From Thermoprotei archaeon (GTDB lineage Archaea; Thermoproteota; Thermoprotei; Thermoproteales; B15-G16): a stretch of 55,434 nucleotides of DNA. Positions 13,840-28,918 of the stretch are shown here, piece after piece. Under the pieces are notes generated by a model that saw only the letters and a program-made list of their open reading frames with translations, was not told the DNA's origin and searched no databases. Position numbers and translations under genes: made by a program. The stretch lies in assembly GCA_003649205.1 (NCBI GenBank), contig QMRC01000013.1, forward strand, positions 1-55,434. Direction: 5' to 3'. The number at the start of each line of letters is the position of its first letter. Positions within the stretch are counted from its first letter, which is position 1.

Positions 13840-14406
13840 TTAACCTTTTCCCAATCTCTTGAGGTACGTGCTACGTAGGTAACCTGCAACTACATCAGCT
13901 AGCTGAATACCAGGTACTCTCGCACTGCTCCTCATCTTGACCTCAATACTGGGTATCACGTATAAATCCCTAATAGCTGATATCAGTGCTCTTCTCAAGT
14001 ACCTTAAATCGAGGGGGACCTCATCAACTACAATAGTCAATAACTCAATACTACCCAAGATATCCACGCACGACCTAAGTAATGAGAACAGAGCCCTCTT
14101 AATTGATAGTAATCTCACCTCTAGAGCATTGTCAGTAGATACGTGAACTACAGAGAAACCAACTCTAAACCTAGAGAGGATAGTGTCAACAAAACTACGT
14201 AACTCAGCAACGTCGAGAACACGCTTAGCATCACGAAACTTAATCTCACCCTTAACACGAAATCTAGACCTAACAAACTCAACGAGATCACGACCAATGA
14301 ACAAATACGAAACACCACTAGGAACAACAGCACCAAGAGCAGCAACGACAAACACCTGACACCTAACAGGGAGACCAGACTCATCAATAAAGACAACAAA
14401 CCTCAC
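13840..14406 (-). CDS. DUF3800 family protein (RNase H-like; start probably GTG 14406 or 14421, not 14490)
   Basis: N-terminal VFIDESG and C-terminal SARVPGIQLADVVAG (DE and QxxD motifs). Confidence 0.85.
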   Translation of the reverse strand: MRFVVFIDESGLPVRCQVFVVAALGAVVPSGVSYLFIGRDLVEFVRSRFRVKGEIKFRDAKRVLDVAELRSFVDTILSRFRVGFSVVHVSTDNALEVRLLSIKRALFSLLRSCVDILGSIELLTIVVDEVPLDLRYLRRALISAIRDLYVIPSIEVKMRSSARVPGIQLADVVAGYLRSTYLKRLGKG

Positions 14407-14458
14407 AGAACATAAAACCACAGAAACACAGAAAAACAACCAAATAAATAGACACATA

Positions 14459-14516
14459 GGGGGATGTGAGGCGGGGATGCCCCCCCGCAAGGGGGTCGAA
14501 GTACCGCCTAAACCCC
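14459..14516 (+). ncRNA. GC-rich structured element, putative small RNA next to the DUF3800 gene
   Basis: AGGCGG/CCGCCU stem, internal loop, CCCCC-GCAA-GGGGG GNRA hairpin, outer GGGG/CCCC; AAATAAATA upstream and a pyrimidine tract downstream. Confidence 0.6.
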
Positions 14517-14518
14517 AA

Positions 14519-14800
14519 TTACCTCTCCTCTAGCATCCTCCTACTCGCTCTAATAACCATGGTGTAATTAGGGAAGAACCTCCTAACAACCTCGAGAACA
14601 GGACCAACATCTTCAAGACGCTCAAAAACCCAAACAACAACCCTACAGAAATGAGGCTCAACCTCAAGTAAACACCTCAACCTACCACCAAAACCAATGA
14701 GAAACTCATAAGCATGCCAACGAACATAGAAACCACGCTTCATAAGCTCAATAGCAAAACGCCACAAAACATCACGAGACAAACTACTCATCATCACCAA
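14519..14800 (-). CDS. Hypothetical protein (~90 aa)
   Basis: ORF with natural-looking composition; GAGGT RBS-like motif upstream. Confidence 0.6.
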   Translation of the reverse strand: MVMMSSLSRDVLWRFAIELMKRGFYVRWHAYEFLIGFGGRLRCLLEVEPHFCRVVVWVFERLEDVGPVLEVVRRFFPNYTMVIRASRRMLEER

Positions 14801-15074
14801 AGTAACCTCGAAACTATTTAACTACTAACTACTTCACCCTAACCTCATAACCTTAACATCAAACCCTAAATAACATGACCTTCTCGAAACCTCACCATGA
14901 AGTTCCTAAGACAAACAACATACCAACTACATACCTTCTAACTCACATGACATCCTCCTTCAACACGAGTAACAACACTACAAAATCCTCAATAGGATCT
15001 TTAACAACAGTTAGGGCACAGAACTTAACTTTCTCTATCCCTTAACCTCTTCAAACTAACCTTCCATAACCCTT

Positions 15075-15779
15075 TCAATAACCTAAAACCTTCTTAACAC
15101 ACTCCCTAACTAACTCATATACCTGCTTCACGTAAGTCCATTCATCTTCAGAAGGTACATACTCAGGATCGTACCTAGCCATATTTCTGATACGTAAAGC
15201 CTTGTGAAGTTTAGCAATTAAGTTCTCAGGTACTATATCACGATACAACTCAGCAAATACATGGATATAACCACCGCGAGTTCTAGGTAAAGGTCTCTCC
15301 TTAACCATTATCAGAGCCTTCAAGAGAAGCTCTATAGCATTGTGAAGTAGATCAACACTAACTCTAACATATCCCATCCTGTAGTTAACTTCAGCAACCT
15401 CACGATAGTGATTAGATAAATCAAGTAACTTCTTAACATGATCCTTAACAACATCTTCATTCACGTACAACACCTTACCGAACTTCTTAACTTCAACATA
15501 GAGAGGATTACCACTAAGTTTCAGAAAGTATTCTTCAAGAGAAACAACAAGAGGTTCAATAACTTCACCAAACTCAACAAAGTAACGATGACAGAGATCA
15601 GCAAGTTGATGATCAATCCATGGATGGTAACAGTCAACAATAACCATGATATCTATATCACTACACTCATCAGCAAAACCCTTAGCAACACTACCAAAGA
15701 GAATAACAGCGTAAACCCTACTATCGAGGATACAAACTAAATCCCTAACAAACCTAAGAGCAACATCAAACTTACTCAC
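15075..15779 (-). CDS. Fused minimal nucleotidyltransferase (MNT)-HEPN protein; true start GTG 15779
   Basis: LFGSVAKG..SDIDI (MNT); AIELLLKA...RNMARY (HEPN); GGAGGAGGT RBS before GTG 15779. Confidence 0.88.
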   Translation of the reverse strand: MSKFDVALRFVRDLVCILDSRVYAVILFGSVAKGFADECSDIDIMVIVDCYHPWIDHQLADLCHRYFVEFGEVIEPLVVSLEEYFLKLSGNPLYVEVKKFGKVLYVNEDVVKDHVKKLLDLSNHYREVAEVNYRMGYVRVSVDLLHNAIELLLKALIMVKERPLPRTRGGYIHVFAELYRDIVPENLIAKLHKALRIRNMARYDPEYVPSEDEWTYVKQVYELVRECVKKVLGY

Positions 15780-15965
15780 ACTACCTCCTCCACAAACCAC
15801 CACAAACTCCAACAAATAACCTACCCAACTCACCAAAACAACATACCCCATAACTAAACGAAGAAACAACAATGAGAAACAACACCCAGAAAACAACACA
15901 AACCAAAGATGTAGACCAAAAAGAAGAAACCAATTTAAGAAAAACAAGACACCTATAAGCCAAGA

Positions 15966-16042
<77 letters not shown>

Positions 16043-16326
16043 AATCCTCATCTTCACTACGTAGCAGGTACACATCATGAATACGTAGGTCGCACAAGAT
16101 GTTACTGGTAATTACGCAGTGAGTTCCCACTGCTAACTACAAAATAGTACGTGAACACTAGTACCTCTCAAGTACTGTGGAGAATCTTCTCCTCTACGTT
16201 AGCTCTTCTCTTATTGAGACCTCTCATTTGCACTACTTTGTATCGCTGATTGTGTTAACTAGTTGATTTCCAGGTGCTATTTGCCATGGTTTAAGTCTAG
16301 TAATGTTATTGATAATGTTATGTTGA

Positions 16327-16750
16327 TTAATCTGTCACTATTCTAAGGTAGTCCTTAGTGAGGACTACGTAGACTTCTCCTTCCATAATCTTCTTGGAAG
16401 CTGGTATGTCGACTACTGTTTCCTGTCCACATACATCTATGAAGTAACTAACTACTGGTCCTAGGAAGACGCTTTCCTTGATGTATCCTTTAACTACGTT
16501 ATCTGCTGTAGGTGGTTCTCTCGATACCTTGATGTACTCTGGTCTAATTGCTAATGTCACCTGATCACCTATGTTGAGTACTTGATCAGGTGTCTTTCTT
16601 GCTTTCACGTACGTATCTGTTGCTAGTTCTATTGTCACTTCGTTATTGATTACTTCAACTACTTTTCCGTGGAGGAAGTTTGTTGTTCCTACGAAATCTG
16701 CTACGAACTTACTTCGTGGATTGTAGTAGATGTCTTCTGGACTACCAACA
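16327..16750 (-). pseudogene. C-terminal (TOBE) fragment of a PotA/MalK-type ABC ATPase
   Basis: GSPEDIYYNPRSKFVADFVG...AIRPE...VFLG; Walker A/B region absent. Confidence 0.8.
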
Positions 16751-16958
16751 TTTGATGAAGCTAAAGAATTCATTGAGAGAAATCCTGAGGTACATGTTGA
16801 GGTTAGAAAGTTGTGAGTAGAGAAATCTTTAATCTCTAGGAAATCGTGAAATCATCTAGGTATCTCCTCAGTTCTCATAGCTATCTCCACGTTACTTATG
16901 CTGGTACAAACTATCCCGTATCTACGTCACTGGGAGGTACTTGAAAGTTTGAGCTAGG

Positions 16959-17765
16959 TTACTTTACTGGTTTTACCCTAAACATGCAGTGTGTACTACC
17001 CATTGCTCTACACTGTATTTCCTCACATACCATGTCTCTACCCAGTACGCTTGAAGCTACACCAGCTATTGTTCCTCTAGTCATGTGGCATACAGGTCTA
17101 TTACTTCTACCGAAGAGTTGAAGGTAGGAATCTGCTTCCCAGCAGTTACTAGCTCTGAATAGAGCTTCGGAAGCTAGTGGATTTATCTTGACTATCTCTA
17201 TGTCTGCCCAACCACATACTCTCGATACGTGTGCGAAGTACTCGGTTACTAGCTTGATGTTCTGTACGATATTGAGGAAACCTCTTGTACCTAGGATCTT
17301 CTTCATGTTCTCAGCAGAGGTGTAGCCGTACCAGAAACCTATGTGGTAGAGTACTGCATCGAGGGCTGTACCTAGTTTATCTCTTAGTGCTACCATAGCT
17401 TCTATAAACCTATCACCAATTATGAGTATCATTCTCCAGTAATCACCACAGATATGTGGATAGTAGAAGTGATCAAAGCAGTACCCTCTCTCATGTAGTT
17501 CAGATGAGATGTACTCCACTCCCACTACGCCATTGAGGCCTTTCAAGGTATTTAGCAGCTTCTCCTCATCTACATTTGTTACGTTGATAAAACCAACGAT
17601 CTCAAGGATATCGTTCTTAACCTCCATAATTGCTGGTGAGAGGAGGTACTTCCCAATTACCTCCATCACATCACTAATTACATCTACTCTACATCTAATC
17701 CTTACCTCAATACACCTTGCACCAGGTACTATCTTGAATAGTGGATACCTAAACTCTGTGTACAT
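16959..17765 (-). CDS. ACT-like + V4R ligand-binding domain protein
   Basis: LYHIGFWYG, CGWA, CWEA, PVCHMTRGTIAG, CEEIQCRAMGSTHCMF. Confidence 0.85.
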   Translation of the reverse strand: MYTEFRYPLFKIVPGARCIEVRIRCRVDVISDVMEVIGKYLLSPAIMEVKNDILEIVGFINVTNVDEEKLLNTLKGLNGVVGVEYISSELHERGYCFDHFYYPHICGDYWRMILIIGDRFIEAMVALRDKLGTALDAVLYHIGFWYGYTSAENMKKILGTRGFLNIVQNIKLVTEYFAHVSRVCGWADIEIVKINPLASEALFRASNCWEADSYLQLFGRSNRPVCHMTRGTIAGVASSVLGRDMVCEEIQCRAMGSTHCMFRVKPVK

Positions 17766-17829: not shown

Positions 17830-18759
17830 CTATAGCTTTGATTCTAGGAATAGTTGGTACGCTCTAATTAGGACACTCTTAGCTGCGTGAAGTACTTCTA
17901 GTGGTTCTTGATCTTGTTCTGGTTTAATCTCGAAACTTACTGCTCCTCTATACTTTATGTCGTGCAATACTTCAAGTAATTTAGCTACTTCCTTCTCGGT
18001 ATTCAGTGCACCTGGTCTATGAAATCCTGGGTGCCAATCATATAGCTTGTCACCTACTTTCTTAGCACAGCCGATGTGTATGTGACCTATGTAGTCTGGG
18101 TACGACTTCAGTACTTCTGGATCCTCATTGAGTAGTGGTGCGTGACTTAGATCCCACAGTATGTAGACGTTCTTGTGTGTTTCACGTACTTTCTCAATTA
18201 CCTTAACGGCTTCTGATAGTGGTCCAAGTAATCTCTTCTTATCCCATATCTGGTCAAAGGTTTCTAGATAGACATTCATTCCGTACTTACCTGCTTCCTC
18301 GGCCAGTTCTCCCAGTGTCTTGATTAGTGCTTCAATTGCTTTCTCCCTCTCTGGTCCTGCAACGTTAGGTCCTGTACATAGTGCTACAGCTCTCATCCCT
18401 CTCACACTAGCTCTCTTAATTTCCTCAATAAATGACGCTACTACTGCTTTCCTCTCCTCTTCATTCACCGAACTAGGATTCCTACCCCTAACCAATATCT
18501 CAGGTTGTAGTGCTAGTGCAAATTCCTTCTCCTTAACTGCATGAGCTATCTTACTCCACTCCTCATCCCTCATTGGTGCTACTTCAAATACTTCGAAGAA
18601 TGGGTCTTCAAGTAGCGTTTTTATCTTATCTCCAGCACCTACATCTGACTTCAGTAGCTCTGGAAATATCATGAATGTCACGATACCTATCTTCCATGGG
18701 AACTTAGCTACTACCTCAATACCGCGAATCACAGCATGTGTGTAGAACATGTGGTTCAC
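17830..18759 (-). CDS. Xylose-isomerase-like TIM-barrel isomerase/epimerase (start probably ~18712)
   Basis: YLETFD, WDLSH, GHIHIG, YRGAVSFE metal-ligand pattern. Confidence 0.85.
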   Translation of the reverse strand: MNHMFYTHAVIRGIEVVAKFPWKIGIVTFMIFPELLKSDVGAGDKIKTLLEDPFFEVFEVAPMRDEEWSKIAHAVKEKEFALALQPEILVRGRNPSSVNEEERKAVVASFIEEIKRASVRGMRAVALCTGPNVAGPEREKAIEALIKTLGELAEEAGKYGMNVYLETFDQIWDKKRLLGPLSEAVKVIEKVRETHKNVYILWDLSHAPLLNEDPEVLKSYPDYIGHIHIGCAKKVGDKLYDWHPGFHRPGALNTEKEVAKLLEVLHDIKYRGAVSFEIKPEQDQEPLEVLHAAKSVLIRAYQLFLESKL

Positions 18760-18789
18760 CTAAGTTGTAGGGACGTGGTTACGTACTTA

Positions 18790-19620
18790 TCAGTACCTCA
18801 ATTCTAGTACTCTCCTAAGGGTTTCAACTCCGGTCCTCACCATCTCTTCATACGTTGGGTAGGGTATACACTCAATACTGAGGTAGTCACTGTACCCTAC
18901 TGCGATAAGTCTATAGATTATTCTCTCCCAATCTAGCATACCCATACCTGGTGCTAGTCTGTTGTTTTCAGCTACGTGTACATAACCTATGTACTCTCTA
19001 GCTCTGGCAATAGCATCGTATGGACTTTTCTCCTCTATTGTGGAGTGGTAGGTATCGAGTAGTAGCTTAACTCTGGGGCTACCGATTGACTTAATGAACT
19101 CTATGGTCTCATCAAGCTTGTTCAGTATATCCGTTTCGTAGTGATTTATTGGTTCTACCAGTAGTGTTGTTCCATAGCCATTAGTTCTCTTCAGTATCTC
19201 CTCGATGCTGCTTCTCAGTATGTTTAGTACCTCTTCTCTTGACCTACCTTCACTTCGACCACGAGCTAGACCAATGACAACTCTATTGTACTTACTCAAT
19301 CTATGAGCAATCTCACAGTACTTCACAAAGAACTCTATTGACTTCTTACGTAGTTCCTCACTTGGATGTGTTAAGCTGTACCCGTACTCTACGTATGATA
19401 GTCCCGTTGAGAGAGCAGATAGTTCAAGACCGTAATCACTCAACTTCTTCTCCAGCTCAGTAACGTTAACCTCAAAGGGGTTGGGGATGTTGAGCTCAAT
19501 ACCGTTAATCCCCACTTCACTAGCTAGCTTAAGTACATTCTCGAGGGGTGCTACTATAGCTGCTTTGAATTTAGTCTTAGGTACTAGTGCATACACTACG
19601 GAGAGCTTCATCAATAACAC
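18790..19620 (-). CDS. iolO: Ketose 3-epimerase family protein, probable 5-keto-L-gluconate epimerase (IolO-like)
   Basis: EPINHYET, LLDTYH, YVHVAENNRLAPGMG, YLSIE; adjacent to the IolN-like gene. Confidence 0.7.
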   Translation of the reverse strand: MLLMKLSVVYALVPKTKFKAAIVAPLENVLKLASEVGINGIELNIPNPFEVNVTELEKKLSDYGLELSALSTGLSYVEYGYSLTHPSEELRKKSIEFFVKYCEIAHRLSKYNRVVIGLARGRSEGRSREEVLNILRSSIEEILKRTNGYGTTLLVEPINHYETDILNKLDETIEFIKSIGSPRVKLLLDTYHSTIEEKSPYDAIARAREYIGYVHVAENNRLAPGMGMLDWERIIYRLIAVGYSDYLSIECIPYPTYEEMVRTGVETLRRVLELRY

Positions 19621-19657
19621 CTAATGTGGGTGAGTAAGGGAAAAGAGAAGAAGGATT

Positions 19658-20635
19658 TTACTTAGTAACTTCTATCGGTTCTACCCATTCCTTTGGTTTG
19701 TTGTAGAAGTAATCCTCGATCTCAATCCATGTCCTTGGTATCTTTCCTGGTGGGTACGTCTTCTTTAACCACTCAATGAACTCAACCATTCTCTTTACAC
19801 AGGTCTCAACAATTACCTTACCCTTCTCTGGTGATGCTTTTTCAGGCCAACCGACGAAGCCCTTGGGGTAGTAGAATAGTTCTGGCGCGTGACTTACGTC
19901 GTACCAGTTAAATGGCTTGTCTGGAAATACGTTACCAGCTGCATTCACGTACTTTGCAGGTATTATCCTAACTACGCCCCATCTCCCTTCCTTCTTAAGC
20001 GTCTCTACATCCACAAGTTCCGGTGCCACATACCATGTAACGCTAGTCTCTACCTCATCTGCGTGTATGAATGGTGTTTCAAGTTTTACTCCGGGTGCAA
20101 TCTCCTCTCCTGTACCTGCTTTCCTGAGTAGATCCTGTACCCAGGACCACCAACTCGTAACTAGAATTAGAGCGTGGACACCCTTCTCTATTATTGCTAC
20201 GTCCTTAGCTATTGGTAGTACGTACTCCTGTCCATGGCTATTCAGAACGATTATCTTCTTGAAACCTGCATTGCTAAGCCACCTAATTACATCTGATACG
20301 TACTCTATGAGTGTTGTTGCTCTTACAGGTATTGTACCTGGTAGACCATAGTGATGACTTGGGTGACTACCGTAGAATATTGGTGGTGCAACTGTGACAC
20401 CTGTTTCGTATGCAACTCTCTCAGCAATTGATACACCAATTATTGTGTCTTCTCCAAGTGGTGCAAAGGGTCCATGACACTCAACTGAACCTACTGGGAG
20501 TATCACTATATCGCATTCCTTAACTCTCTCTTCGAGTTCCTTCCTAGTCATTTGGTCAAGGTATATCTTTTTACCGAATCTGTTTAGAATAGGTTTTCCA
20601 AATCTTTCACTAAGTGGGGTATTCATTGTAGTCAC
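19658..20635 (-). CDS. iolN: Creatininase family protein, probable 3-dehydro-scyllo-inosose hydrolase
   Basis: PVGSVECHG...GEDT, YGSHPSHHYGLPGTI, NSHGQEY, ETPFIHADEVETS. Confidence 0.82.
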   Translation of the reverse strand: MTTMNTPLSERFGKPILNRFGKKIYLDQMTRKELEERVKECDIVILPVGSVECHGPFAPLGEDTIIGVSIAERVAYETGVTVAPPIFYGSHPSHHYGLPGTIPVRATTLIEYVSDVIRWLSNAGFKKIIVLNSHGQEYVLPIAKDVAIIEKGVHALILVTSWWSWVQDLLRKAGTGEEIAPGVKLETPFIHADEVETSVTWYVAPELVDVETLKKEGRWGVVRIIPAKYVNAAGNVFPDKPFNWYDVSHAPELFYYPKGFVGWPEKASPEKGKVIVETCVKRMVEFIEWLKKTYPPGKIPRTWIEIEDYFYNKPKEWVEPIEVTK

Positions 20636-20687
20636 GGCTAAATAAATATTTTCTAGATGTCTAAATCAGTTTTCCTGAGGTGGTTAG

Positions 20688-21701
20688 GTGAAGAAAATTG
20701 GTGTAGCAATTATTGGTCTTGGTAGAATTGGTAGAGTTCATGCTGAGGTCTTCATGGCTCATGTAGAGAATGCTAGGTTAGTGGCTGTAGCCGATGCGGT
20801 TGAGGAGTTAGCTAGGTCTGTAGGTGAGAGATTTGGTGTTAAGTGGTATAAGGACTACGATACTCTACTGAAGGATCCTGAAGTAGATGCAGTAGTCATA
20901 TGTACACCGACATTCCTCCATGCTGAGATGATCATTAAGGCGGCTGAAGCAGGTAAGCACATCTTCTGTGAAAAGCCGATGACAGTGACCTCCGATGAGG
21001 CGAAGAGAGTTATATCAGCTGTTGAGAAGGCTGGTGTAAAGCTGATGGTTGGTTACATGAGGAGATTTGATGAAGCTTACTTAAATGCTAAGAAACTCAT
21101 TGAAGAGGGTAAGATAGGTAGACCGATAATGTTCATTAGCATAGCTAGGGATCCAGCACCACCGCCTGGTTGGGCAGCTGATCCAAAGCTTAGTGGTGGT
21201 ATATTCCTAGATATGCTATCACATGACTTCGATATGGCTAGGTGGCTCATAGGTTCAGAGGTTAAGGAAGTGTACGTACATGGTGGAGTCTACATGTTTC
21301 CAGAGGAGATAGGTAAGAAGGGTGATCTAGATGTTGTATCGATAAGTTTCAAGTTTGAGAATGGTGTTCTAGGGTACATACATGGTACGAGGAAGAATGT
21401 GTACGGTTACGACCTTAGAACAGAGATCTACGGTACTGATGGAATAATCTACGTAGGTGCAAGAGAGAACAATCTCTTCTCCTATGGTAGACCTGATGGA
21501 TTAGTGTTCCTCGGTGTTAAGTGGTTTGAGAAGAGATTCTACGACGCATACATAGCAGAGGATAGGCACTTCATAGAGTGTGTAATTGAGGATAAGACAC
21601 CTCTGATAACGGGTAACGATGGTTTAAGAGCTGTACAGATAGCTGAAGCTTGTTGGAGATCATATAGAGAGGGAAGACCTGTCACAGTAAGTTACGAGTA
21701 G
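20688..21701 (+). CDS. iolG: myo-inositol 2-dehydrogenase (Gfo/Idh/MocA family)
   Basis: GLGRIG, CEKP, GYMRRFD, SGGIFLDMLSHDFD, YGYDLRTE. Confidence 0.85.
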   Translation: MKKIGVAIIGLGRIGRVHAEVFMAHVENARLVAVADAVEELARSVGERFGVKWYKDYDTLLKDPEVDAVVICTPTFLHAEMIIKAAEAGKHIFCEKPMTVTSDEAKRVISAVEKAGVKLMVGYMRRFDEAYLNAKKLIEEGKIGRPIMFISIARDPAPPPGWAADPKLSGGIFLDMLSHDFDMARWLIGSEVKEVYVHGGVYMFPEEIGKKGDLDVVSISFKFENGVLGYIHGTRKNVYGYDLRTEIYGTDGIIYVGARENNLFSYGRPDGLVFLGVKWFEKRFYDAYIAEDRHFIECVIEDKTPLITGNDGLRAVQIAEACWRSYREGRPVTVSYE

Positions 21702-21777
21702 TGCAGTAAAGATGGTGAGTAAGATTAGGTAAGAGAAGGTAAAAAGAATAGTGTGCTCTTTCCTACTTCCTACACTA

Positions 21778-23238
21778 CTAAGCTATGTGTATCGTTCTCC
21801 ACCTTATAGCATTGTTCACGTAACCTAGCTTAGTTAGGAACCTAGTTAGTAAGTGCGCTAGCTCACGTTCATATGCCTTTCTAAGTTCTTCATCCTCTCT
21901 ATAGAGCTCTAGTACCTTCTCTCTTAGATACCTGAACCCCCTACTATCCCTAACTGTCTGGAATAGGAAGAAGTAGTGCCTGAAGAAGTCTGCTCTTGGA
22001 TCCATTTCCTCTCTGAGACCCTTTCTAACCTCATCCTCATACCTCCTCAACATCTGCTCTAACTCAGGTGAGTATAGGTAACCTCTCTTCTCAACTTCCT
22101 TAATCAAGTAATCGTGTACAGTGCTGAAGATCTCCTCGTAGAGAGTTCTAGGTCTTGAACCTCTTGGGAATCTAGCCATGACCTCGAGTAGTAGCTGAAT
22201 GAAGATGCCAGACACTTTGTACTTAACAAGTCCACTAGTTGCATCACGAACTGTTTCCCAAACACCAATACCCTTGTCGCTGTATGGATGAGCACCACTA
22301 CCTGAGTGAATTGACAGTAAGGTACCGAATGACTTAGCTACGGTACTCAATACCTCCAACCTCTCTCTTAACTCACCTAGTTCACCGGCATAGTCCTCAC
22401 GTTTCCTAAACCCTACGTTTGGTGCTATGAAGTTAATGTTGAGACCTCTGTCTCTTAACTCATTGAGGTAGAACACTAAGTCCTTTACAGGAGTTAACTC
22501 AGGTAACTCATCGAGAGCTACCTCAAGACCTACAGGACCTAGGTATGTCTCAACTAAGCTGTATACCTTCTCAACGTACTCAATACTCTTGAGGTACTTC
22601 AGAGCTAATCTAGCTACATCAATCCTACTGAACTTAACCTCAATACAGTACTCAGGCCCGAGAAAAGTGAAGACCTTACCAATATACTTCTTCTCGAGAC
22701 TCCTCCTAACGTCTTCAGGTACCTCACTCTCGTACCTAGCAAGAACCTCACTCTCACTCAACTTATCAACACCGAGATCAACGAGTTCACAGGTATCTAC
22801 TGTAACAAACTCAACACCACCAACCTCCTTAGCTTCCTTCATCTCCTTCTCAATGTAGTTCAGAGACTCACGAATTTCCTCATCAGTAAGACCATACTCG
22901 AAAGCAGCACCACTAATCCTCTTAATAGCTCTCTCCGGCGACGCCATTAACGATACGTGATCAGCCTCAATTTCAACGACCACAGAGTATAGGTCAGATA
23001 GCTTTCTAGCCTTAGAGATGTACTCCTTAATCGAGGTTCCTGTATGTCCCTTCAGGAAATCCCTTGGATTTAGCGATGCTATGACATCTTCAGGACCAGT
23101 CTCTCTATGGTATGACAACATGATATTGGCAACAACGTTAAGCTCCTTAAAGATCCTGTACATAGTAGGCAGCACTACATCAGGTAACCTCACACCAAAT
23201 CCAGGTCTCGGAGTCAATCCAAGGTACCTACTAGGCAT
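21778..23238 (-). CDS. uxaE: Tagaturonate/fructuronate epimerase (UxaE family)
   Basis: EADHV, EVALDE..T, FIAPNVGFRKREDY, LSIHSGS, KYKVSG. Confidence 0.82.
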   Translation of the reverse strand: MPSRYLGLTPRPGFGVRLPDVVLPTMYRIFKELNVVANIMLSYHRETGPEDVIASLNPRDFLKGHTGTSIKEYISKARKLSDLYSVVVEIEADHVSLMASPERAIKRISGAAFEYGLTDEEIRESLNYIEKEMKEAKEVGGVEFVTVDTCELVDLGVDKLSESEVLARYESEVPEDVRRSLEKKYIGKVFTFLGPEYCIEVKFSRIDVARLALKYLKSIEYVEKVYSLVETYLGPVGLEVALDELPELTPVKDLVFYLNELRDRGLNINFIAPNVGFRKREDYAGELGELRERLEVLSTVAKSFGTLLSIHSGSGAHPYSDKGIGVWETVRDATSGLVKYKVSGIFIQLLLEVMARFPRGSRPRTLYEEIFSTVHDYLIKEVEKRGYLYSPELEQMLRRYEDEVRKGLREEMDPRADFFRHYFFLFQTVRDSRGFRYLREKVLELYREDEELRKAYERELAHLLTRFLTKLGYVNNAIRWRTIHIA

Positions 23239-23418
23239 AGACTATACCTCCTCTACATGCGTAATCAAGCTCACTAATATTAGTTGAACCCTCAAAAACT
23301 ATCAAGAGGTTGCAGTATCGATGCTGGGAACTAACTACTACTATGTAGGTAGACTCTGAGCTACACTAAATGAGTATCCTTAAATAGCTGTATAGTAACC
23401 TCTCTAGGGGGTGGTATC

Positions 23419-24597
23419 ATGCCAGAGAAGATGCTAGCAGCTGTTCTACATGGCGAGTGGGTTCCAAGACCTGGCTACAAACCTACTCCAGAAGAAGAGA
23501 AAACAAGGAAAGCAAAACACGGTAGTAGGGTGTGGAAGAATCCAACACTGAAGCTAGAGGAGATTGAGAGGCCAAAACCTGGTCCAAGGCAGGTAGTCAT
23601 TAGGGTTAAGGCCTGTGGTATCTGTGGTAGCGATGTTCACATGTACGAGAAGGATGAAGAGGGCTACATGCTGTATCCCGGTATGGTGAGGTTACCAGTA
23701 GTCATAGGTCACGAGCTATCGGGTGAAATAGTTGAGGTTGGTAGTGAGGTAACAGAGCTAAAGCCAGGTGATGCTGTTACCTGTGTAGAGATGTGGTACT
23801 GTGGTGAGTGTGTTAACTGTAGGAGAGGTTACTTCGATCACTGTATCAATCTAGAGGAGATGGGATTTACGAAGAATGGTGGATTTGCTGAGTACCTAGT
23901 TGTAGATGCTAAGTACTGTTGGAAGATTGATGAGTTCCTAAACGTGTACAGGAGCGAGGACAAGATGTACGAAGCAGGTTCACTAATTGAGCCATTTAGC
24001 GTAGCGTATAAGGCAATGTTCATTAGAGCAGGTGGGTTCCTACCAGGTGGATACGTAGTCGTGTACGGTTGTGGACCAATCGGACTAGCATGTATAATGC
24101 TAGCTAAGGCTGCTGGTGCAGGTAAGGTAATTGCATTCGAGGTAATACCAGAGAGAGCAGAGTTAGCTAAGCAGGTTGGTGCAGATTACGTATTTAATCC
24201 AATTGAGCTAGAGAAGCAAGGTAAGTCGATTCACGAAGTAGTACTAGACGTAACTGGTGGCGTAGGTGCTGATCTACAGGTAGAAGCAGCAGGATACCCA
24301 CCACTAATAACAGAGATGGAGAAGTGCCTATCAGTAGGAGGTAAGATTACCTGGATTGGTAGAGCTGATAGAGAAGCACCAACATGGTTTGAGTACTTCC
24401 AGATAAGGAGCGGACAGATCTACGGTTCACAAGGACACGTAGACTACGCACCATTCATGTGGGTAATTAGATTGATAGCAAGTGGAAGGATAGATCCAAC
24501 GAAGATCATTACAGCAAGGTACAAGCTATCAGAAGTGCTACAGGCAATGGAAAGAGCAAGACTTAGAAAGGACGCAAAGATCACAATTAAGCCATAG
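23419..24597 (+). CDS. iolM: scyllo-inosose 3-dehydrogenase (Zn-dependent MDR)
   Basis: W.PRPGY..GSRVWKNP N-terminus, CGICGSD, YMLYPG..PVVIGHE, CGECVNC, GSQGH. Confidence 0.87.
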   Translation: MPEKMLAAVLHGEWVPRPGYKPTPEEEKTRKAKHGSRVWKNPTLKLEEIERPKPGPRQVVIRVKACGICGSDVHMYEKDEEGYMLYPGMVRLPVVIGHELSGEIVEVGSEVTELKPGDAVTCVEMWYCGECVNCRRGYFDHCINLEEMGFTKNGGFAEYLVVDAKYCWKIDEFLNVYRSEDKMYEAGSLIEPFSVAYKAMFIRAGGFLPGGYVVVYGCGPIGLACIMLAKAAGAGKVIAFEVIPERAELAKQVGADYVFNPIELEKQGKSIHEVVLDVTGGVGADLQVEAAGYPPLITEMEKCLSVGGKITWIGRADREAPTWFEYFQIRSGQIYGSQGHVDYAPFMWVIRLIASGRIDPTKIITARYKLSEVLQAMERARLRKDAKITIKP

Positions 24598-24697
24598 TAG
24601 CTTCACTACCTTGTTCCTTATAGAAAAGAGAAATTATTGTTCTTTATTTCCTAAATCCTCACTCATGATCCAGTGCTCTAGCGTTAGCTCAACAGTT

Positions 24698-24725
24698 CTA
24701 AGTAGGTTAATATATACCTACTTAG
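24698..24725. promoter_or_regulatory. Inverted repeat CTAAGTAGGT-N8-ACCTACTTAG, candidate operator
   Basis: Perfect 10-bp arms about 20 nt upstream of the CTTATATA TATA box of the 722-aa gene. Confidence 0.5.
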
Positions 24726-24800
24726 GTTATCAATGGTAGTAATCCTTATATACACACCTCCGAAAACTATAGTGCAGTACATGTGAGGTGTTAATACTCC

Positions 24801-26969
24801 ATGGTAAGTCTTACACTAGACTACATTAGGGAAGTTATTGAGAGATCAAGACCAGAGAAGTTGACGTTACCAGTACCACCACGAACAGATCACGCTGATC
24901 ACATAGTTAAGTCAGCACTTGCTGGTCACACGAAGCTAGCTGCTGATCACATCCTGTACCCAGAGATGGTTGGTAAGCTATATGACGTCATTGGAGCAGC
25001 CATAAGACAGCTGAACCTAGAGTTCGTTGCTGCTAGGATAAGGGATACAGACGGTAAAGAAGAAATCGAAAGAAAGATAGTGGTTAGACATCGATGTTAC
25101 GATGTCTTGCTTGAAATAGCGTTTAATCTATTTGGTATTGAGAGTAGGAAGGTTGGTTTTAGCAGTGATGAGGTAGAGAAATCACTTAGAGCTATCTACA
25201 GCATATTAAAGAGGTGGGAAGAGATTGAGAGGAAGGAATACGGTAGTGCGCTCATTGCTAAAGCAACTATTGAGGAGCAGCTAAGGTCTATGAAGATAGT
25301 GAATAAGGGCAACAGCATGCTCGCATACATGGCGAATGAGGTTGAGAAGCAACTTGATGAGAATAACCTACTTGAGAGCTATCTAAATGCAATGAGAAAG
25401 CAGTTCGAGACTAACATCTACTATGTGGCTACGTTGAAAGGAATGTGTAAGTTCGGTAATGACTATGCACTAGGTCTAAGGTGGTTGAGACATCTAGGCT
25501 ATGTACAGGTATCGACTAATCCGGTACTAGCCGCTAGAGCATACGATGATGACCCAAGACTGTGGGAACTATTCAAGGAACATGCAAGAGATGTACTCGT
25601 TAAGGAGCATCCCGAGTGGTTCAGGGAACCTGAGAAGTACGCTGATGACATAGCTATGGAAGCGACTAGATTCGCACTCATGGATAACTTCCTAGTGTTC
25701 AGACCAGTGTTCTTCTGGTCTAAGTACCACGATGGTCTAGTGAGCTACCAGTTAAATCCATTAATTGCTCACGATGCTGAGAAGAGTGTTGAGGCAGCAC
25801 TAACCTTCTACATGAGGACACAGAAGGACTTGAAGGTATACGATGAGTACCTACTTTGGGGCTACACGACAGTTACTGAGAAGGGTAGACCAAACATAGT
25901 GATTAAGGTAGCTGCTGCATATCCAGCAGCAATAGAGATTGCTGAGAGATTGAACGAGCTAGGTATTGGTCAGAACATTACAGTGAGCTACACAGTAGCT
26001 CAAGAAGTACTAATTGGCGTAGCAGCAATGAGAGGCATGGCTAAGGCAATTAAGGCGGGAATCCTAGTGACACAGACATACGACACTAACATGGGTGGTA
26101 GACTTGAGGATCACCTAAGAGAGACTATAGCAACTGACCTACTGCTAAAGGGCTTAGAGAAAGTTGATGAGAAGAAGAGAGAAGCAATACTTGAGAAGCT
26201 AGCAAAGGCTCTAGGAGTTCCAGAGGACAAGTATGCTGAGTTGACGAAGCTACCACTTAAGGAGAGAATTGAGGTTCTATGCTCAAAGAAGATCCTAGGT
26301 AGGAACCTACTACGTGATGCATTCGTTGAAGCACTACTCGAGACAGGTGCATACGGTGATAAGGAGAGTTTAGTCAAGATGTTAAGTCAGATAGAGAACG
26401 ACCTACACCTATCGGGTACATTCGTCGCCCATAGAGTATACGAGATATTGTTTGCTCCTGGAAATAGAGAGAGGTGGATTGAGTACCTAATGAAGGAGAT
26501 AGGTGTGACGAGAGAGGAAGCTGAAATGGTGGTGGATAGAATTGACCTACTACCAGCATCAAAGAGACATCCAAGCGATACATTACTGACGTTTGCCAGG
26601 AGAAACATGACCAATACAGAGTTCCCCAATCACCAGCTAAAGGTACTACATGAAACTATGAAACCAGGATTCAGATTAGAAGACTACGAGGAGTCAGTGA
26701 TGAAGGAGCTAGATCCAAAGGTCCTAGAGAGACTAATGCAGTACGAAGACTTCGTCAAGGCATATGAAGCATCACCTGAAGTAAATGAACTATTGAAGAA
26801 GGTAGGTATTGAGCTGAAGTACGGTAATAGAGGTCTCAAAGTTGACGAATGGCCAAAGTACGGACCATGTGTAAAGACGATGAAGGAGTTCACTGAAGGA
26901 TACCTCAAGTTTAGAGATAAGTGTGTACAAGTGATTAAGGAGCTAGCTAAGGAACTAGGTACAGCCTAA
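24801..26969 (+). CDS. Large transaldolase/FSA-fold class I aldolase with ~210-aa N-terminal extension
   Basis: GND, STNP, VSYQL, NIVIKV (Schiff-base Lys), NITVSY, GGR, ASKR. Confidence 0.85.
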   Translation: MVSLTLDYIREVIERSRPEKLTLPVPPRTDHADHIVKSALAGHTKLAADHILYPEMVGKLYDVIGAAIRQLNLEFVAARIRDTDGKEEIERKIVVRHRCYDVLLEIAFNLFGIESRKVGFSSDEVEKSLRAIYSILKRWEEIERKEYGSALIAKATIEEQLRSMKIVNKGNSMLAYMANEVEKQLDENNLLESYLNAMRKQFETNIYYVATLKGMCKFGNDYALGLRWLRHLGYVQVSTNPVLAARAYDDDPRLWELFKEHARDVLVKEHPEWFREPEKYADDIAMEATRFALMDNFLVFRPVFFWSKYHDGLVSYQLNPLIAHDAEKSVEAALTFYMRTQKDLKVYDEYLLWGYTTVTEKGRPNIVIKVAAAYPAAIEIAERLNELGIGQNITVSYTVAQEVLIGVAAMRGMAKAIKAGILVTQTYDTNMGGRLEDHLRETIATDLLLKGLEKVDEKKREAILEKLAKALGVPEDKYAELTKLPLKERIEVLCSKKILGRNLLRDAFVEALLETGAYGDKESLVKMLSQIENDLHLSGTFVAHRVYEILFAPGNRERWIEYLMKEIGVTREEAEMVVDRIDLLPASKRHPSDTLLTFARRNMTNTEFPNHQLKVLHETMKPGFRLEDYEESVMKELDPKVLERLMQYEDFVKAYEASPEVNELLKKVGIELKYGNRGLKVDEWPKYGPCVKTMKEFTEGYLKFRDKCVQVIKELAKELGTA

Positions 26970-27104
26970 TCCTCTACCCCTAACTCTTTTCTCAATACAT
27001 AGATCTAATCACCTATGTTGAACTCATTTGGTATATAGTGTATATGGGGTACCTACAGGTAAACTTATATCTTTATGATCTCCATTTAACTTATCGGTGA
27101 TTTC

Positions 27105-28118
27105 ATGCAGAAACCGAAACTATACGTGACTAGGGAAATATTTGAAGACATACTCAAGAAACTCGAACAGTACTACGAAATTGAGGTATGGGACAAGTAC
27201 TACCCACCACCATACGAAGTACTCCTAGAGAAAGCTAAGCAAGCAGATGCACTACTTACAATGCTCACAGATAGGATAGATGCAAATCTCCTACAGCAAG
27301 CAAAGAAGTTAAGAATTGTAGCTCAGATGGCTGTTGGATTTGATAACATAGACATCAATACAGCAACAAAACTAGGTGTGTATGTGACGAATACACCTGG
27401 AGTACTAACAGAGGCTGTTGCTGAGTTAACTTGGGCTCTCATACTAGCTGTTGCTAGGAGGATTGTCGAAGCAGATCACTTCGTTAGGTGGGGTGAATGG
27501 TCAAGGACAAAGACAGGCTGGCACCCACTAATGATGCTTGGTGCTGAGCTTAAGGGTAAGGTACTTGGAATCATAGGACTAGGTAGGATAGGTTCAAGAG
27601 TTGCTGAGATAGCAGTTAAAGGTTTTGGCATGAAGGTAATTTACTACGATGTCGTCCGTAGGGAAGACCTAGAGAAGCAACTTGGTATTGAGTATAGAGA
27701 CCTCGATACATTACTACAGGAAGCAGACATCGTATCAATACACGTACCTCTGACAAAGGAGACGTACCACATGATCAATGAGGAGAAGCTGAGGAAGATG
27801 AAGAAGGGTGCAATACTCATAAATACAGCTAGAGGCAAGGTCGTTGATACGGAAGCACTGATAAAGGCTCTAAGAGAGGGTTGGATTGCAGGAGCAGGTC
27901 TAGATGTATTCGAAGAGGAACCACTACCGCCACATCATCCACTAACAGCATTCAAGAACGTGGTACTCGTACCACACATAGGTAGTGCCACGTACGAAAC
28001 AAGACATGCTATGGCAGAGCTAGTGGCTGAAAACCTAATAGCATTTTATGAAGGTAGAGTACCACCAACGCTAGTGAATAAGGATGTAGTTAAGGTCAGA
28101 CCACCAGGCTTCAAGTAA
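27105..28118 (+). CDS. gyaR: Glyoxylate/hydroxypyruvate reductase
   Basis: AVGFDNID, TNTPGVLT, GLGRIG, INTARG, GLDVFEEEP, PHIGSAT. Confidence 0.92.
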   Translation: MQKPKLYVTREIFEDILKKLEQYYEIEVWDKYYPPPYEVLLEKAKQADALLTMLTDRIDANLLQQAKKLRIVAQMAVGFDNIDINTATKLGVYVTNTPGVLTEAVAELTWALILAVARRIVEADHFVRWGEWSRTKTGWHPLMMLGAELKGKVLGIIGLGRIGSRVAEIAVKGFGMKVIYYDVVRREDLEKQLGIEYRDLDTLLQEADIVSIHVPLTKETYHMINEEKLRKMKKGAILINTARGKVVDTEALIKALREGWIAGAGLDVFEEEPLPPHHPLTAFKNVVLVPHIGSATYETRHAMAELVAENLIAFYEGRVPPTLVNKDVVKVRPPGFK

Positions 28119-28189: not shown

Positions 28190-28918
28190 GTGATGGATGT
28201 GTTGATCGAGGTGCTTGCTAATAAGTACTCGTATGTAATCTACGTGGATAGGTATGCTGATGAATTTAGGAAATACCTACCATTTCGCTCACGTGCTCAC
28301 GTATGGAAAGAGGAGGTGTACTTCGAGACACCTATCGTATTGGGTAATAGAGCAGATACCTACTTGATAGAACTTGGTGAGGTCTACTACTGGCCTCCTG
28401 GTAAAGCTCTTTGTCTCTTCTATGGATTCTCAGAACCGTATACACCAGTCCTCCGTATTGGGTACATAGTAGGTCCTCTTCACTACCTTCGTGAGGTAAG
28501 TGAGGGTACTGAGCTAGAGGTGCGAGAACACAGTATCGATTCTAGGTTCAGCAGATATGTGGAGGTGCTTAAGGAGCTTGGATACTACGTTGCTACACCA
28601 ATTATCGATGGAGCGACTACAGTAGTTGCTTCAAAGGGACTTGGATTCAATAGGGTAGCATTCACCCTGTATATTGAGGAGTACGGTATTCACATTGAGT
28701 CTGAACCGCTCTTCAGATATGAGCAGAACTTGAGCACCATTAAGCTACTGCGCATGTTAAAGAACTCTGTTAAGGCGTTATCAAGGTATACACGTATTGA
28801 TCTAGATGAGATGGGTAATGTGTGCATTACCGCTGTTGCAGAGAGTGCTGATCAGTTGAACACTGTTATTAGGGAATTTGAGAAAATTTGGTCCTTCGTT
28901 GGTTCAGTTCTAAGCTGA
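28190..28918 (+). CDS. Cyclophilin-like (TM1367/DUF369) domain protein with extra C-terminal domain
   Basis: LPF...WKEEVYF...GEVYYWPPGKALCLFYG. Confidence 0.75.
   Translation: MMDVLIEVLANKYSYVIYVDRYADEFRKYLPFRSRAHVWKEEVYFETPIVLGNRADTYLIELGEVYYWPPGKALCLFYGFSEPYTPVLRIGYIVGPLHYLREVSEGTELEVREHSIDSRFSRYVEVLKELGYYVATPIIDGATTVVASKGLGFNRVAFTLYIEEYGIHIESEPLFRYEQNLSTIKLLRMLKNSVKALSRYTRIDLDEMGNVCITAVAESADQLNTVIREFEKIWSFVGSVLS

Follow-up and report, generated by a model that had tools for sequence, protein, structure and literature searches.

The closest described system is the myo-inositol pathway of Thermotoga maritima. According to a passage in PMC5931981, which attributes the route to Rodionova 2013, it runs through IolG, IolM, IolN and IolO and then through UxaE, UxuB, UxuA, KdgK and KdgA; a passage in PMC12632266 likewise describes the step from 5-keto-L-gluconate to D-tagaturonate. 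Here we have analysed contig QMRC01000013.1 of Thermoprotei archaeon (assembly GCA_003649205.1; 2.07 Mb in 31 contigs, 93.8% complete), positions 1 to 55,434 of the forward strand. This whole stretch, contig 13 of the genome, is called the window below. A gene cluster at 17830–28118 holds the Thermotoga-type set of IolG, IolM, IolN and IolO genes together (Table 1); IolG and IolM pass the cut-offs of their profiles, while IolN and IolO are best matches that score below theirs. Its predicted gene content makes this a myo-inositol upper pathway of the Thermotoga type. It further encodes a UxaE-like epimerase, a 722-amino-acid (aa) transaldolase-fold protein, a xylose-isomerase-like TIM barrel (TIM2) and the reductase GyaR. 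The best explanation for this combination, with chances that we judge to be evenly balanced, is an inositol upper pathway in which the giant enzyme would cleave D-fructuronate and the products would drain towards glycerate. What the analysis shows is the gene content, the fold, the conservation of catalytic residues, the co-occurrence and the lack of matches to the canonical route; what the enzyme acts on and yields, how TIM2 and GyaR function, and whether the mode is that of an aldolase or of a transaldolase are inferred.

The Pfam TAL_FSA match of the giant enzyme is confined to residues 231–405 of 722. An AlphaFold (AF2) model made from an alignment of 36 homologs has a mean predicted local distance difference test score (pLDDT) of 95.2 and a predicted template modelling score (pTM) of 0.92. 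When residues 205–709 of this model are compared with solved structures by VIA-align, N. gonorrhoeae transaldolase 3clm gives a Z score of 34.8 with a root mean square deviation of 2.7 and 331 of 350 residues aligned. The other long transaldolases score 33.5 (C. glutamicum 3r5e) and 30.4 (E. coli TalB 1onr), and the short forms 19 (T. acidophilum transaldolase), 18.7 (sulfofructose transaldolase) and 17.7 (fructose-6-phosphate aldolase, FSA). Foldseek pairs the model with transaldolases at an E value of 4e-9. Residues 204–712 are thus modelled as a real transaldolase (beta/alpha)8 barrel with insertions. About 175 residues are inserted within the barrel span, mostly helices at 432–579, and residues ~1–203 form an extra helical N-terminal domain in the AF2 model. 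For this domain an ESM Atlas search with residues 1–215 returned only generic helical-repeat look-alikes with TM scores below 0.5, and nothing matching appeared in the structural comparison with solved transaldolases either. A weak NCBIfam match of the domain to LIMLP_15305 (E 1e-6) was dropped, as it was not reproduced in any of the four homologs tested. A block with Asp30-His31 and Asp49-His50 (window positions 24888–24953) is invariant in 36 of 36 members, and His34 is nearly so; being as conserved as the catalytic motifs, this Asp-His block looks like a metal or substrate site. Judged from the model, the 722-aa enzyme looks like a working transaldolase-fold catalyst.

The predicted active-site set comprises Asp221, Asn240, Gln317, Lys369, Asn392, Thr394, Thr429, Met431, Arg434, Ser587 and Arg589. 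Eight of these residues (Gln317, Lys369, Asn392, Thr394, Thr429, Met431, Arg434 and Arg589) do not vary among the 36 members, and Ser587 is conserved in at least 90%. Lys369 (V-I-K-V) aligns with the Schiff-base lysine of the I-K-V-P motif on strand 4 of solved and genomic transaldolases. In HMMER alignments N392-I-T394 pairs with the N-x-T motif of transaldolases, and Gln317 (VSYQL) lies where three long transaldolases of solved structure have the conserved Glu of their VS-x-E motif; the three alignments at Gln317 are individually weak, mutually concordant and in agreement with strand beta3 of the model. Direct phmmer and hmmsearch comparisons of the protein, the family profile and residues 355–460 with PDB sequences gave marginal matches only (best E 0.0035–0.24). 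Since the alignments with PDB sequences ended before strand 6, the diagnostic Phe/Tyr site on that strand was taken from HHalign, with which the 36-member alignment was set against 30 transaldolases of the ordinary 220-aa kind encoded in genomes of this phylum. The site is F178 in TalB, F132 in the T. acidophilum transaldolase and Y131 in FSA, as given in PDB titles. HHalign pairs T-Q-T-Y-D-T429-N-M431-G-G-R434-L-E-D with A-K-Y-V-S-P-F-I-G-R-L-D-D. The template Glu, Lys and Phe at 57, 83 and 129 keep a constant offset of 3 from E60, K86 and F132 of the T. acidophilum enzyme, and the Phe facing Met431 is therefore taken as the diagnostic Phe. Arg434 lies opposite the Arg of G-R-L-D-D in the same comparison, and L-L-P-A-S587-K-R589-H-P is paired with I-L-V-A-S-V-R-H-P in a low-confidence alignment. 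HHalign of the sub-blocks 205–345 and 575–625 likewise gave low-confidence results only and did not place the Glu site relative to the short transaldolases. Across the 36 members the Schiff-base Lys, the N-x-T motif, the Ser/Thr-x-x-x-G-R motif and the A-S-x-R-H-P anion site either do not vary or are conserved in at least 90%. Of the TalB residues cited for comparison, E96 and F178 are named in PDB titles.

An initial annotation of this DNA had assigned the enzyme to the FSA type on the strength of a Gln plus Tyr signature. Half of this signature holds. Gln317 does occupy the catalytic Glu site, as does Q59 in FSA, whereas Tyr397 (TVSY) aligns with the Phe of N-x-T-L-x-F on strand 5, which is not the site that discriminates transaldolases from FSA; at the position of Tyr131 there is the invariant Met431. 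The short, single-domain subunit of about 220 aa typical of FSA is missing as well. From a classical transaldolase the enzyme departs by having Gln317 for the strand-3 Glu and Met431 for the strand-6 Phe, while the anion site is present. To judge from these alignments, the giant enzyme fits the textbook picture of a transaldolase no better than that of an FSA.

A conventional lower pathway was looked for in the cluster and in the entire genome. The profile scans (Pfam, NCBIfam) covered open reading frames (ORFs) of at least 150 aa throughout the window and of at least 100 aa in 12000–34000. In keeping with the initial annotation, which had seen no UxuAB, 2-keto-3-deoxygluconate (KDG) kinase or KDPG (2-keto-3-deoxy-6-phosphogluconate) aldolase in the cluster, no match to the mannonate dehydrogenase, mannonate dehydratase, KDG kinase or KDPG aldolase families was found among the scanned window ORFs. 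The profile search of the whole genome gave no UxuA match, although with a genome that is 93.8% complete the lack of a match does not prove that the gene is absent. Nor were there matches to Mannitol_dh_C, a profile that covers the UxuB and UxaB types, to the Eda-type aldolase PF01081, or to Dak1. A complete uxuAB-kdgK-eda route, which according to the initial annotation would speak against its proposal, did not come to light, as uxuA, uxuB-type and eda matches are all missing. The genome has one gene of the DHDPS family, which passes the dapA cut-off and not that for archaeal KD(P)G aldolase. Of the PfkB matches, two are full-length genes with their highest scores for ribokinase or ribose-1-phosphate kinase, although the second of them reaches neither cut-off; the remaining PfkB match is short (contig C2, 25.9 bits, profile positions 175–234). 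The genome also encodes a glycerate kinase of the MOFRL type along with three FGGY kinases, and the giant enzyme is the sole TAL_FSA match in the whole genome.

At least 886 database proteins match the giant enzyme, and among the 120 matches listed nearly all are ~700–780 aa long. Their labels point to Ignisphaera, Thermofilaceae, Bathyarchaeia and Brockarchaeota; relatives also occur in Thermofilum- and Ignisphaera-labelled genomes, several of which are single contigs. For the co-occurrence analysis the same 301 genomes of the phylum were used in every search. The giant enzyme is present in 48 of them and UxaE in 30, and the two coincide in 28 of the 30 UxaE genomes, the exceptions being G111 (82% complete) and G197. 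Co-occurrence with uxaE and iolN, which the initial annotation had set out as a check, is thus borne out: 21 of the 26 genomes with an IolN match of at least 210 bits carry the enzyme, and none of the 26 has a strong UxuA (E <1e-40). Strong UxuA matches are found in 15 genomes; among the 28 with enzyme and UxaE only G085 is one of these, and G185 has a marginal match of 21.9 bits. Four genomes have a canonical-type UxaE (E 1e-157 to 1e-174), which in G085 and G103 is the immediate neighbour of the enzyme. The pattern recurs in at least eight families; as the genomes are related, and hence no independent samples, the co-occurrence counts overstate independence, which weakens their weight for our interpretation.

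Genomic neighbourhoods point in the same direction. A relative of the enzyme is encoded in 206 stretches from species-representative genomes, of which 80 loci were kept, including those of a few bacteria (Aerophobetes, Anaerolineae, Dehalococcoidales) and of one Hadarchaeota. Neighbouring ORFs were clustered at ≥25% identity and ≥60% coverage and counted within 10 kb of the enzyme. At this clustering level the IolG-like (26 of 80 loci) and IolM-like (19) clusters may include paralogs. UxaE-like genes are neighbours in 25 loci, TIM2 orthologs in 23, GyaR in 22, other xylose-isomerase-like barrels in 21, IolN in 15 and IolO in 10; glycerate 2-kinase lies two genes from the enzyme in 7. At least one pathway gene is present in 60 of the 80 loci, and UxaE or TIM2 occurs without IolM or IolN in 17. 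GyaR follows the enzyme immediately downstream in 10 loci, and in L029 and L030 TIM2 and GyaR are directly adjacent on the same strand. The link persists in bacterial copies, as in the Aerophobetes locus L058 with the order IolN-UxaE-enzyme.

In eight Ignisphaera/Desulfurococcaceae-labelled loci (L020–L025, L027, L028) a uronate-isomerase-like gene, c14, joins the module. These Ignisphaera-type loci combine the enzyme, UxaE, TIM2 and GyaR with c14 instead of IolM and IolN. The c14 protein matches the NCBIfam glucuronate isomerase over its full length (E 2.9e-8), with the Pfam UxaC match below threshold (E 0.0024). Because this sequence match is only distant, its structure was modelled (pLDDT 74.8, pTM 0.77). 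The top Foldseek match is the uncharacterised amidohydrolase 4i6v (E 7e-22, TM 0.83), followed by the uronate isomerases of B. halodurans, C. crescentus, T. maritima and Salmonella (E 2e-15 to 4e-13, query TM 0.68–0.78). A GH2 protein is a neighbour in 5 loci, with c14 in L020–L022 and L024 and without it in L031; it scores 436 bits against beta-glucuronidase, below the cut-off of 544. A single c14 query found no relative in the genome of the window. With the functions predicted for these genes, the c14/GH2 loci lend independent support to the idea of a fructuronate pathway.

Further neighbours were noted in passing. A DeoC/LacD-family aldolase adjoins the enzyme or lies near it in L029, L030, L042, L043, L045 and L049, and this aldolase passes the ADH-synthase subfamily model (290 bits, cut-off 241). 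A GDPD-family phosphodiesterase is encoded just upstream of the enzyme in 8 of the 80 loci (L008, L009, L011, L026, L035, L064 and others), often together with a divergent PfkB kinase; this hints at glycerophosphoinositol or di-myo-inositol phosphate as a possible source of the inositol. The cyclophilin-like PF04126 protein that follows GyaR in the window recurs near the enzyme as a long form in 8 loci and as a 133-aa short form in 10.

The pathway that we propose would begin with the oxidation of inositol to scyllo-inosose by IolG and to 3-dehydro-scyllo-inosose by IolM. IolN would then give 5-keto-L-gluconate, from which the IolO-like epimerase would form D-tagaturonate, and the UxaE-like C4 epimerase would convert D-tagaturonate into D-fructuronate. 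Transaldolase-family enzymes accept donors of (3S,4R) configuration, which is that of D-fructuronate. At this point the 722-aa enzyme would stand in for the UxuB/UxuA/KdgK/KdgA route. The C6 carboxylate of D-fructuronate could be bound at Arg434/Ser587/Arg589, Lys369 would form a Schiff base at the C2 keto group, and the bond between C3 and C4 would be broken, with C4–C6 leaving as tartronate semialdehyde. The C1–C3 dihydroxyacetone unit would be either freed or handed to an aldehyde, e.g. glyceraldehyde 3-phosphate (GAP), to give fructose 6-phosphate. Transfer to GAP is mildly favoured by the lack of a Dak1 match, and FSA-like release, again mildly, by the Gln that occupies the Glu site. TIM2 would isomerise tartronate semialdehyde to hydroxypyruvate, which GyaR would reduce to D-glycerate, and a glycerate 2-kinase encoded elsewhere in the genome would yield 2-phosphoglycerate. 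In other archaea glucuronate would feed the same lower module through the uronate-isomerase-like enzyme. Isomerisation of glucuronate reaches fructuronate directly and inositol reaches it via tagaturonate and UxaE, so that the two upper routes converge there.

The two genes assigned to the fate of the C4–C6 fragment differ in how firmly they can be named. GyaR-type enzymes reduce 2-oxo acids, and the identification made in the initial annotation stands, since the protein scores well above the equivalog cut-off (Table 1). Unless the C4–C6 fragment is tartronate semialdehyde or hydroxypyruvate, no 2-oxo C3 acid would be expected, so that GyaR fits the proposed cleavage. For the second TIM-barrel isomerase of that annotation, the xylose-isomerase-like barrel is supported and a hydroxypyruvate isomerase is not: the best NCBIfam match of TIM2 is indeed Hyi (TIGR03234), but its 49.9 bits fall far short of the cut-off of 353.45. 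Among solved structures a tagatose 3-epimerase comes nearest (E 3e-4).

Extended to the family, the proposal reads that the ~720-aa proteins are D-fructuronate transaldolases or aldolases which, together with the Hyi-like barrel and GyaR, would constitute a KDG-independent route for inositol and glucuronate. Their acid-base chemistry would be new and might involve the N-terminal Asp-His block, and the route would yield glycerate and triose or hexose phosphate in many Thermoproteota and a few bacteria. We hold this wider formulation tentatively, its chances falling just short of even. Several observations weigh against the proposed pathway. Both usual acid-base residues appear to be replaced, the Glu by Gln317 and the Tyr of FSA by Met431, so that the known residues do not account for catalysis. 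The alignment behind Met431 has an HHalign probability of 10.9% and an E value of 0.0028, though the motif match itself is clear. The site formed by Arg434, Ser587 and Arg589 would suit either a phosphate or a carboxylate, and TIM2, judged by its matches, could be an epimerase and not an isomerase of the cleavage product. Family members, where they are named at all, are called only 'hypothetical' or 'transaldolase family protein'. Pathway genes are missing from 20 of the 80 loci; in 14 of these the flank is shorter than 8 kb on one or both sides, and the other 6 have full flanks. Seven loci (L036, L038, L039, L040, L044, L048, L069) have a different context that lacks UxaE and consists of an IolO-like barrel, two URO-D/MtaA-like genes, PhoPQ_related, glycerate 2-kinase, a class II ketose-bisphosphate aldolase, GH42 and GH20; it is enriched in Brockarchaeota and Nitrososphaerota-labelled metagenome-assembled genomes. 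In four Thermofilaceae loci the enzyme stands beside a DeoC/LacD-type aldolase with an IolO-like barrel ~1–3.4 kb away. The seven deviating loci and the six pathway-free ones suggest that the family may act on more than one substrate.

These deviations bring into play another ketose as substrate, namely D-tagaturonate, 5-keto-L-gluconate, 5-keto-D-gluconate (which is also 3S,4R) or neutral fructose or tagatose, with the neighbouring xylose-isomerase-like barrels acting as 3-epimerases that prepare it. A barrel of this kind occurs in 41 of the 80 loci and belongs to at least five subfamilies. The IolO-like barrels of the UxaE-less loci (adjacent to the enzyme in the seven, more distant in the four of Thermofilaceae) score 141–160 bits to IolO, and UxaE was not found in 20 of the 48 enzyme-positive genomes, which also counts against fructuronate as the general substrate. 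The UxaE-like protein of the window itself is closest to PDB entry 9kcs_A, titled 'ISOMERASE' (459 bits, E 1.5e-136; also 9kct), and far more weakly related to Cohnella UxaE 6il9 (E 3.4e-17). A passage in PMC12042125 reports a Thermoprotei UxaE-like 'tagatose 4-epimerase', found by structure clustering, that converts fructose into tagatose and may or may not be the 9kcs protein. On the other hand, the presence of the enzyme in nearly all UxaE genomes points to fructuronate, the Arg/Ser/Arg anion site speaks against neutral sugars, and GyaR beside the enzyme speaks for an acidic C3 product. Furthermore, tagaturonate and 5-keto-L-gluconate lack the required 3S,4R configuration. On balance we regard a different ketose as unlikely.

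A conserved anion site (Arg434, Ser587, Arg589) apparently made of the classical phosphate-binding residues would also suit a transaldolase or aldolase of sugar phosphates, acting on sedoheptulose 7-phosphate, fructose 6-phosphate or a phosphorylated keto-uronate in a pentose-phosphate or gluconeogenic role, in which case its place near sugar-acid genes would be incidental. PfkB kinases occur in some loci (clusters c24 and c45), and as 45 of the 48 carriers have no other TAL_FSA match of at least 120 bits, the giant enzyme could be their sole transaldolase. However, with 48 of 301 genomes its occurrence is patchy and follows that of UxaE and IolN instead of being universal, 60 of the 80 loci have it embedded in catabolic operons, no kinase was found among the scanned genes of the window cluster, and the catalytic Glu is replaced by Gln. 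In one family, f9, all 43 genomes have an ordinary transaldolase of ~220 aa and none has the giant form. A housekeeping pentose-phosphate role was rejected in view of the patchy distribution, the catabolic operon context and the Glu-to-Gln replacement, and the sugar-phosphate alternative as a whole appears distinctly improbable. We give least credence, and very little at that, to a protein that neither splits nor transfers carbon units in vivo and serves as a Schiff-base isomerase or epimerase, as a binding or regulatory protein, or through chemistry of its N-terminal domain. The replacement of both acid-base residues and an N-terminal domain with invariant D30, H31, D49 and H50 and no structural match would be in line with it; the remaining transaldolase active site is invariant, though, and the pathway would otherwise have no step to break the C6 chain.

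The genes and flanking features of the cluster are compiled in Table 1; all ORFs were found at exactly the positions given in the initial annotation, whose account of the cluster (inositol genes, transaldolase-fold protein, second TIM barrel, GyaR) is borne out by the profile matches. The V4R-domain protein is, speculatively, a small-molecule-sensing regulator of the cluster; a V4R-domain protein was found near the giant enzyme in none of the 80 other loci. Beyond it lies a 148-aa ORF that matches only the C-terminal TOBE part (profile positions ~208–330) of MalK/PotA-type ABC ATPases and is probably a gene remnant, because the ATPase domain is missing upstream. A DUF3800 protein and a 351-aa fusion of an MntA-like nucleotidyltransferase with HEPN are encoded between peptide-type ABC transporter genes and the inositol cluster; the segment has a strongly negative GC skew and looks like a toxin-antitoxin or defence-type insert. 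Still further out, a single 754-aa polypeptide fuses two BPD_transp_1 permease domains, one OppB-like and one OppC-like.

Table 1. Features of the inositol cluster and its flanks in the window
Feature	Position	Strand	Profile match	Cut-off (bits)	Remark
Permease fusion	11461..13725	+	BPD_transp_1 (two domains)
DUF3800 protein and nucleotidyltransferase-HEPN fusion	13840..16130	-
TOBE-type ORF	16327..16773	-
V4R-domain protein	16959..17765	-	PF02830, 61 bits		directly downstream of TIM2, same strand
TIM2, xylose-isomerase-like TIM barrel	17830..18759	-	PF01261, 87.9 bits
IolO-like 5-keto-L-gluconate epimerase	18790..19620	-	NF041099, 223.5 bits; PF01261, 145.8 bits	300 (NF041099)
IolN-like 3-dehydro-scyllo-inosose hydrolase	19658..20635	-	NF041098, 241.5 bits	245	creatininase fold
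IolG, inositol 2-dehydrogenase	20688..21701	+	TIGR04380, 371.9 bits	355
UxaE-like C4 epimerase (tagaturonate/fructuronate)	21778..23238	-	PF16257, 107.3 bits	27.1
IolM, scyllo-inosose 3-dehydrogenase	23419..24597	+	NF041097, 521.2 bits	450
722-aa transaldolase-fold enzyme	24801..26969	+	TAL_FSA PF00923, 45.3 bits	27
GyaR, glyoxylate/hydroxypyruvate reductase	27105..28118	+	NF009714, 600.4 bits	455
Cyclophilin-like protein	28190..28918	+	PF04126		follows GyaR

If the proposed cleavage is true, it would be a new C-C cleavage step in the catabolism of hexuronates and inositol, which is so far known to proceed oxidatively or via KDG. The way in which many hyperthermophilic archaea with UxaE and IolN and no UxuAB complete these pathways would be explained, and the cleavage would provide a function for a large protein family without a functional name. 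The enzyme would be the second natural transaldolase-fold enzyme, after sulfofructose transaldolase, that acts on a non-phosphorylated anionic sugar, and its altered active site (Gln, Met) and extra domain are relevant to the engineering of FSA and TalB for aldol synthesis. The carriers labelled Thermofilum and Ignisphaera make the idea directly testable. A search of the literature, with subscription journals and supplements outside its scope, turned up neither an aldolase or transaldolase for fructuronate nor an archaeal route of this kind, in agreement with the initial annotation, which knew of no description.

The locus can be compared with several known systems. With the inositol pathway of Thermotoga maritima it shares the upper steps and a UxaE-family epimerase; the UxuA, UxuB-type and Eda proteins of that pathway are unmatched here, and the transaldolase-fold enzyme, TIM2 and GyaR are found instead. 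The exit through D-glycerate resembles the glucarate and glyoxylate branches (GarL-GarR-GarK and Gcl-Hyi-GlxR), in which tartronate semialdehyde or hydroxypyruvate is likewise converted into D-glycerate and phosphoglycerate. In those branches, however, tartronate semialdehyde is produced by glyoxylate carboligase or an aldolase of the pyruvate type, and a beta-hydroxyacid dehydrogenase carries out its reduction, whereas here the 2-hydroxyacid dehydrogenase GyaR and a putative isomerase would do this. Long transaldolases (3clm, 3r5e, 1onr) are the best structural matches, with almost the entire target chain covered, and have the Lys, N-x-T, G-R and S-x-R motifs in common with the giant enzyme. 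They differ from it by an identity of only 14–20%, the Glu-to-Gln and Phe-to-Met replacements, and the extra domain and large insertions found here; they also serve the pentose-phosphate pathway, while the giant enzyme has a catabolic gene context. E. coli FSA (1l6w) shares the Gln at the Glu position, the Schiff-base lysine and the fold, but has Tyr131 in place of Met431, a length of 220 aa and a sugar-phosphate substrate. By analogy, sulfofructose transaldolase (BmSF-TAL, PDB 8bc2–8bc4) is the precedent for the reaction type, as the same fold acts there on a non-phosphorylated, C6-anionic ketohexose. The logic of its pathway parallels our proposal: GAP receives a C3 unit, and the anionic C3 aldehyde that is set free undergoes reduction. 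At 218 aa, the decameric BmSF-TAL belongs to the short type, in contrast to the long barrel here with its insertions and 200-residue N-terminal domain, and its anion is a sulfonate where here it would be a carboxylate.

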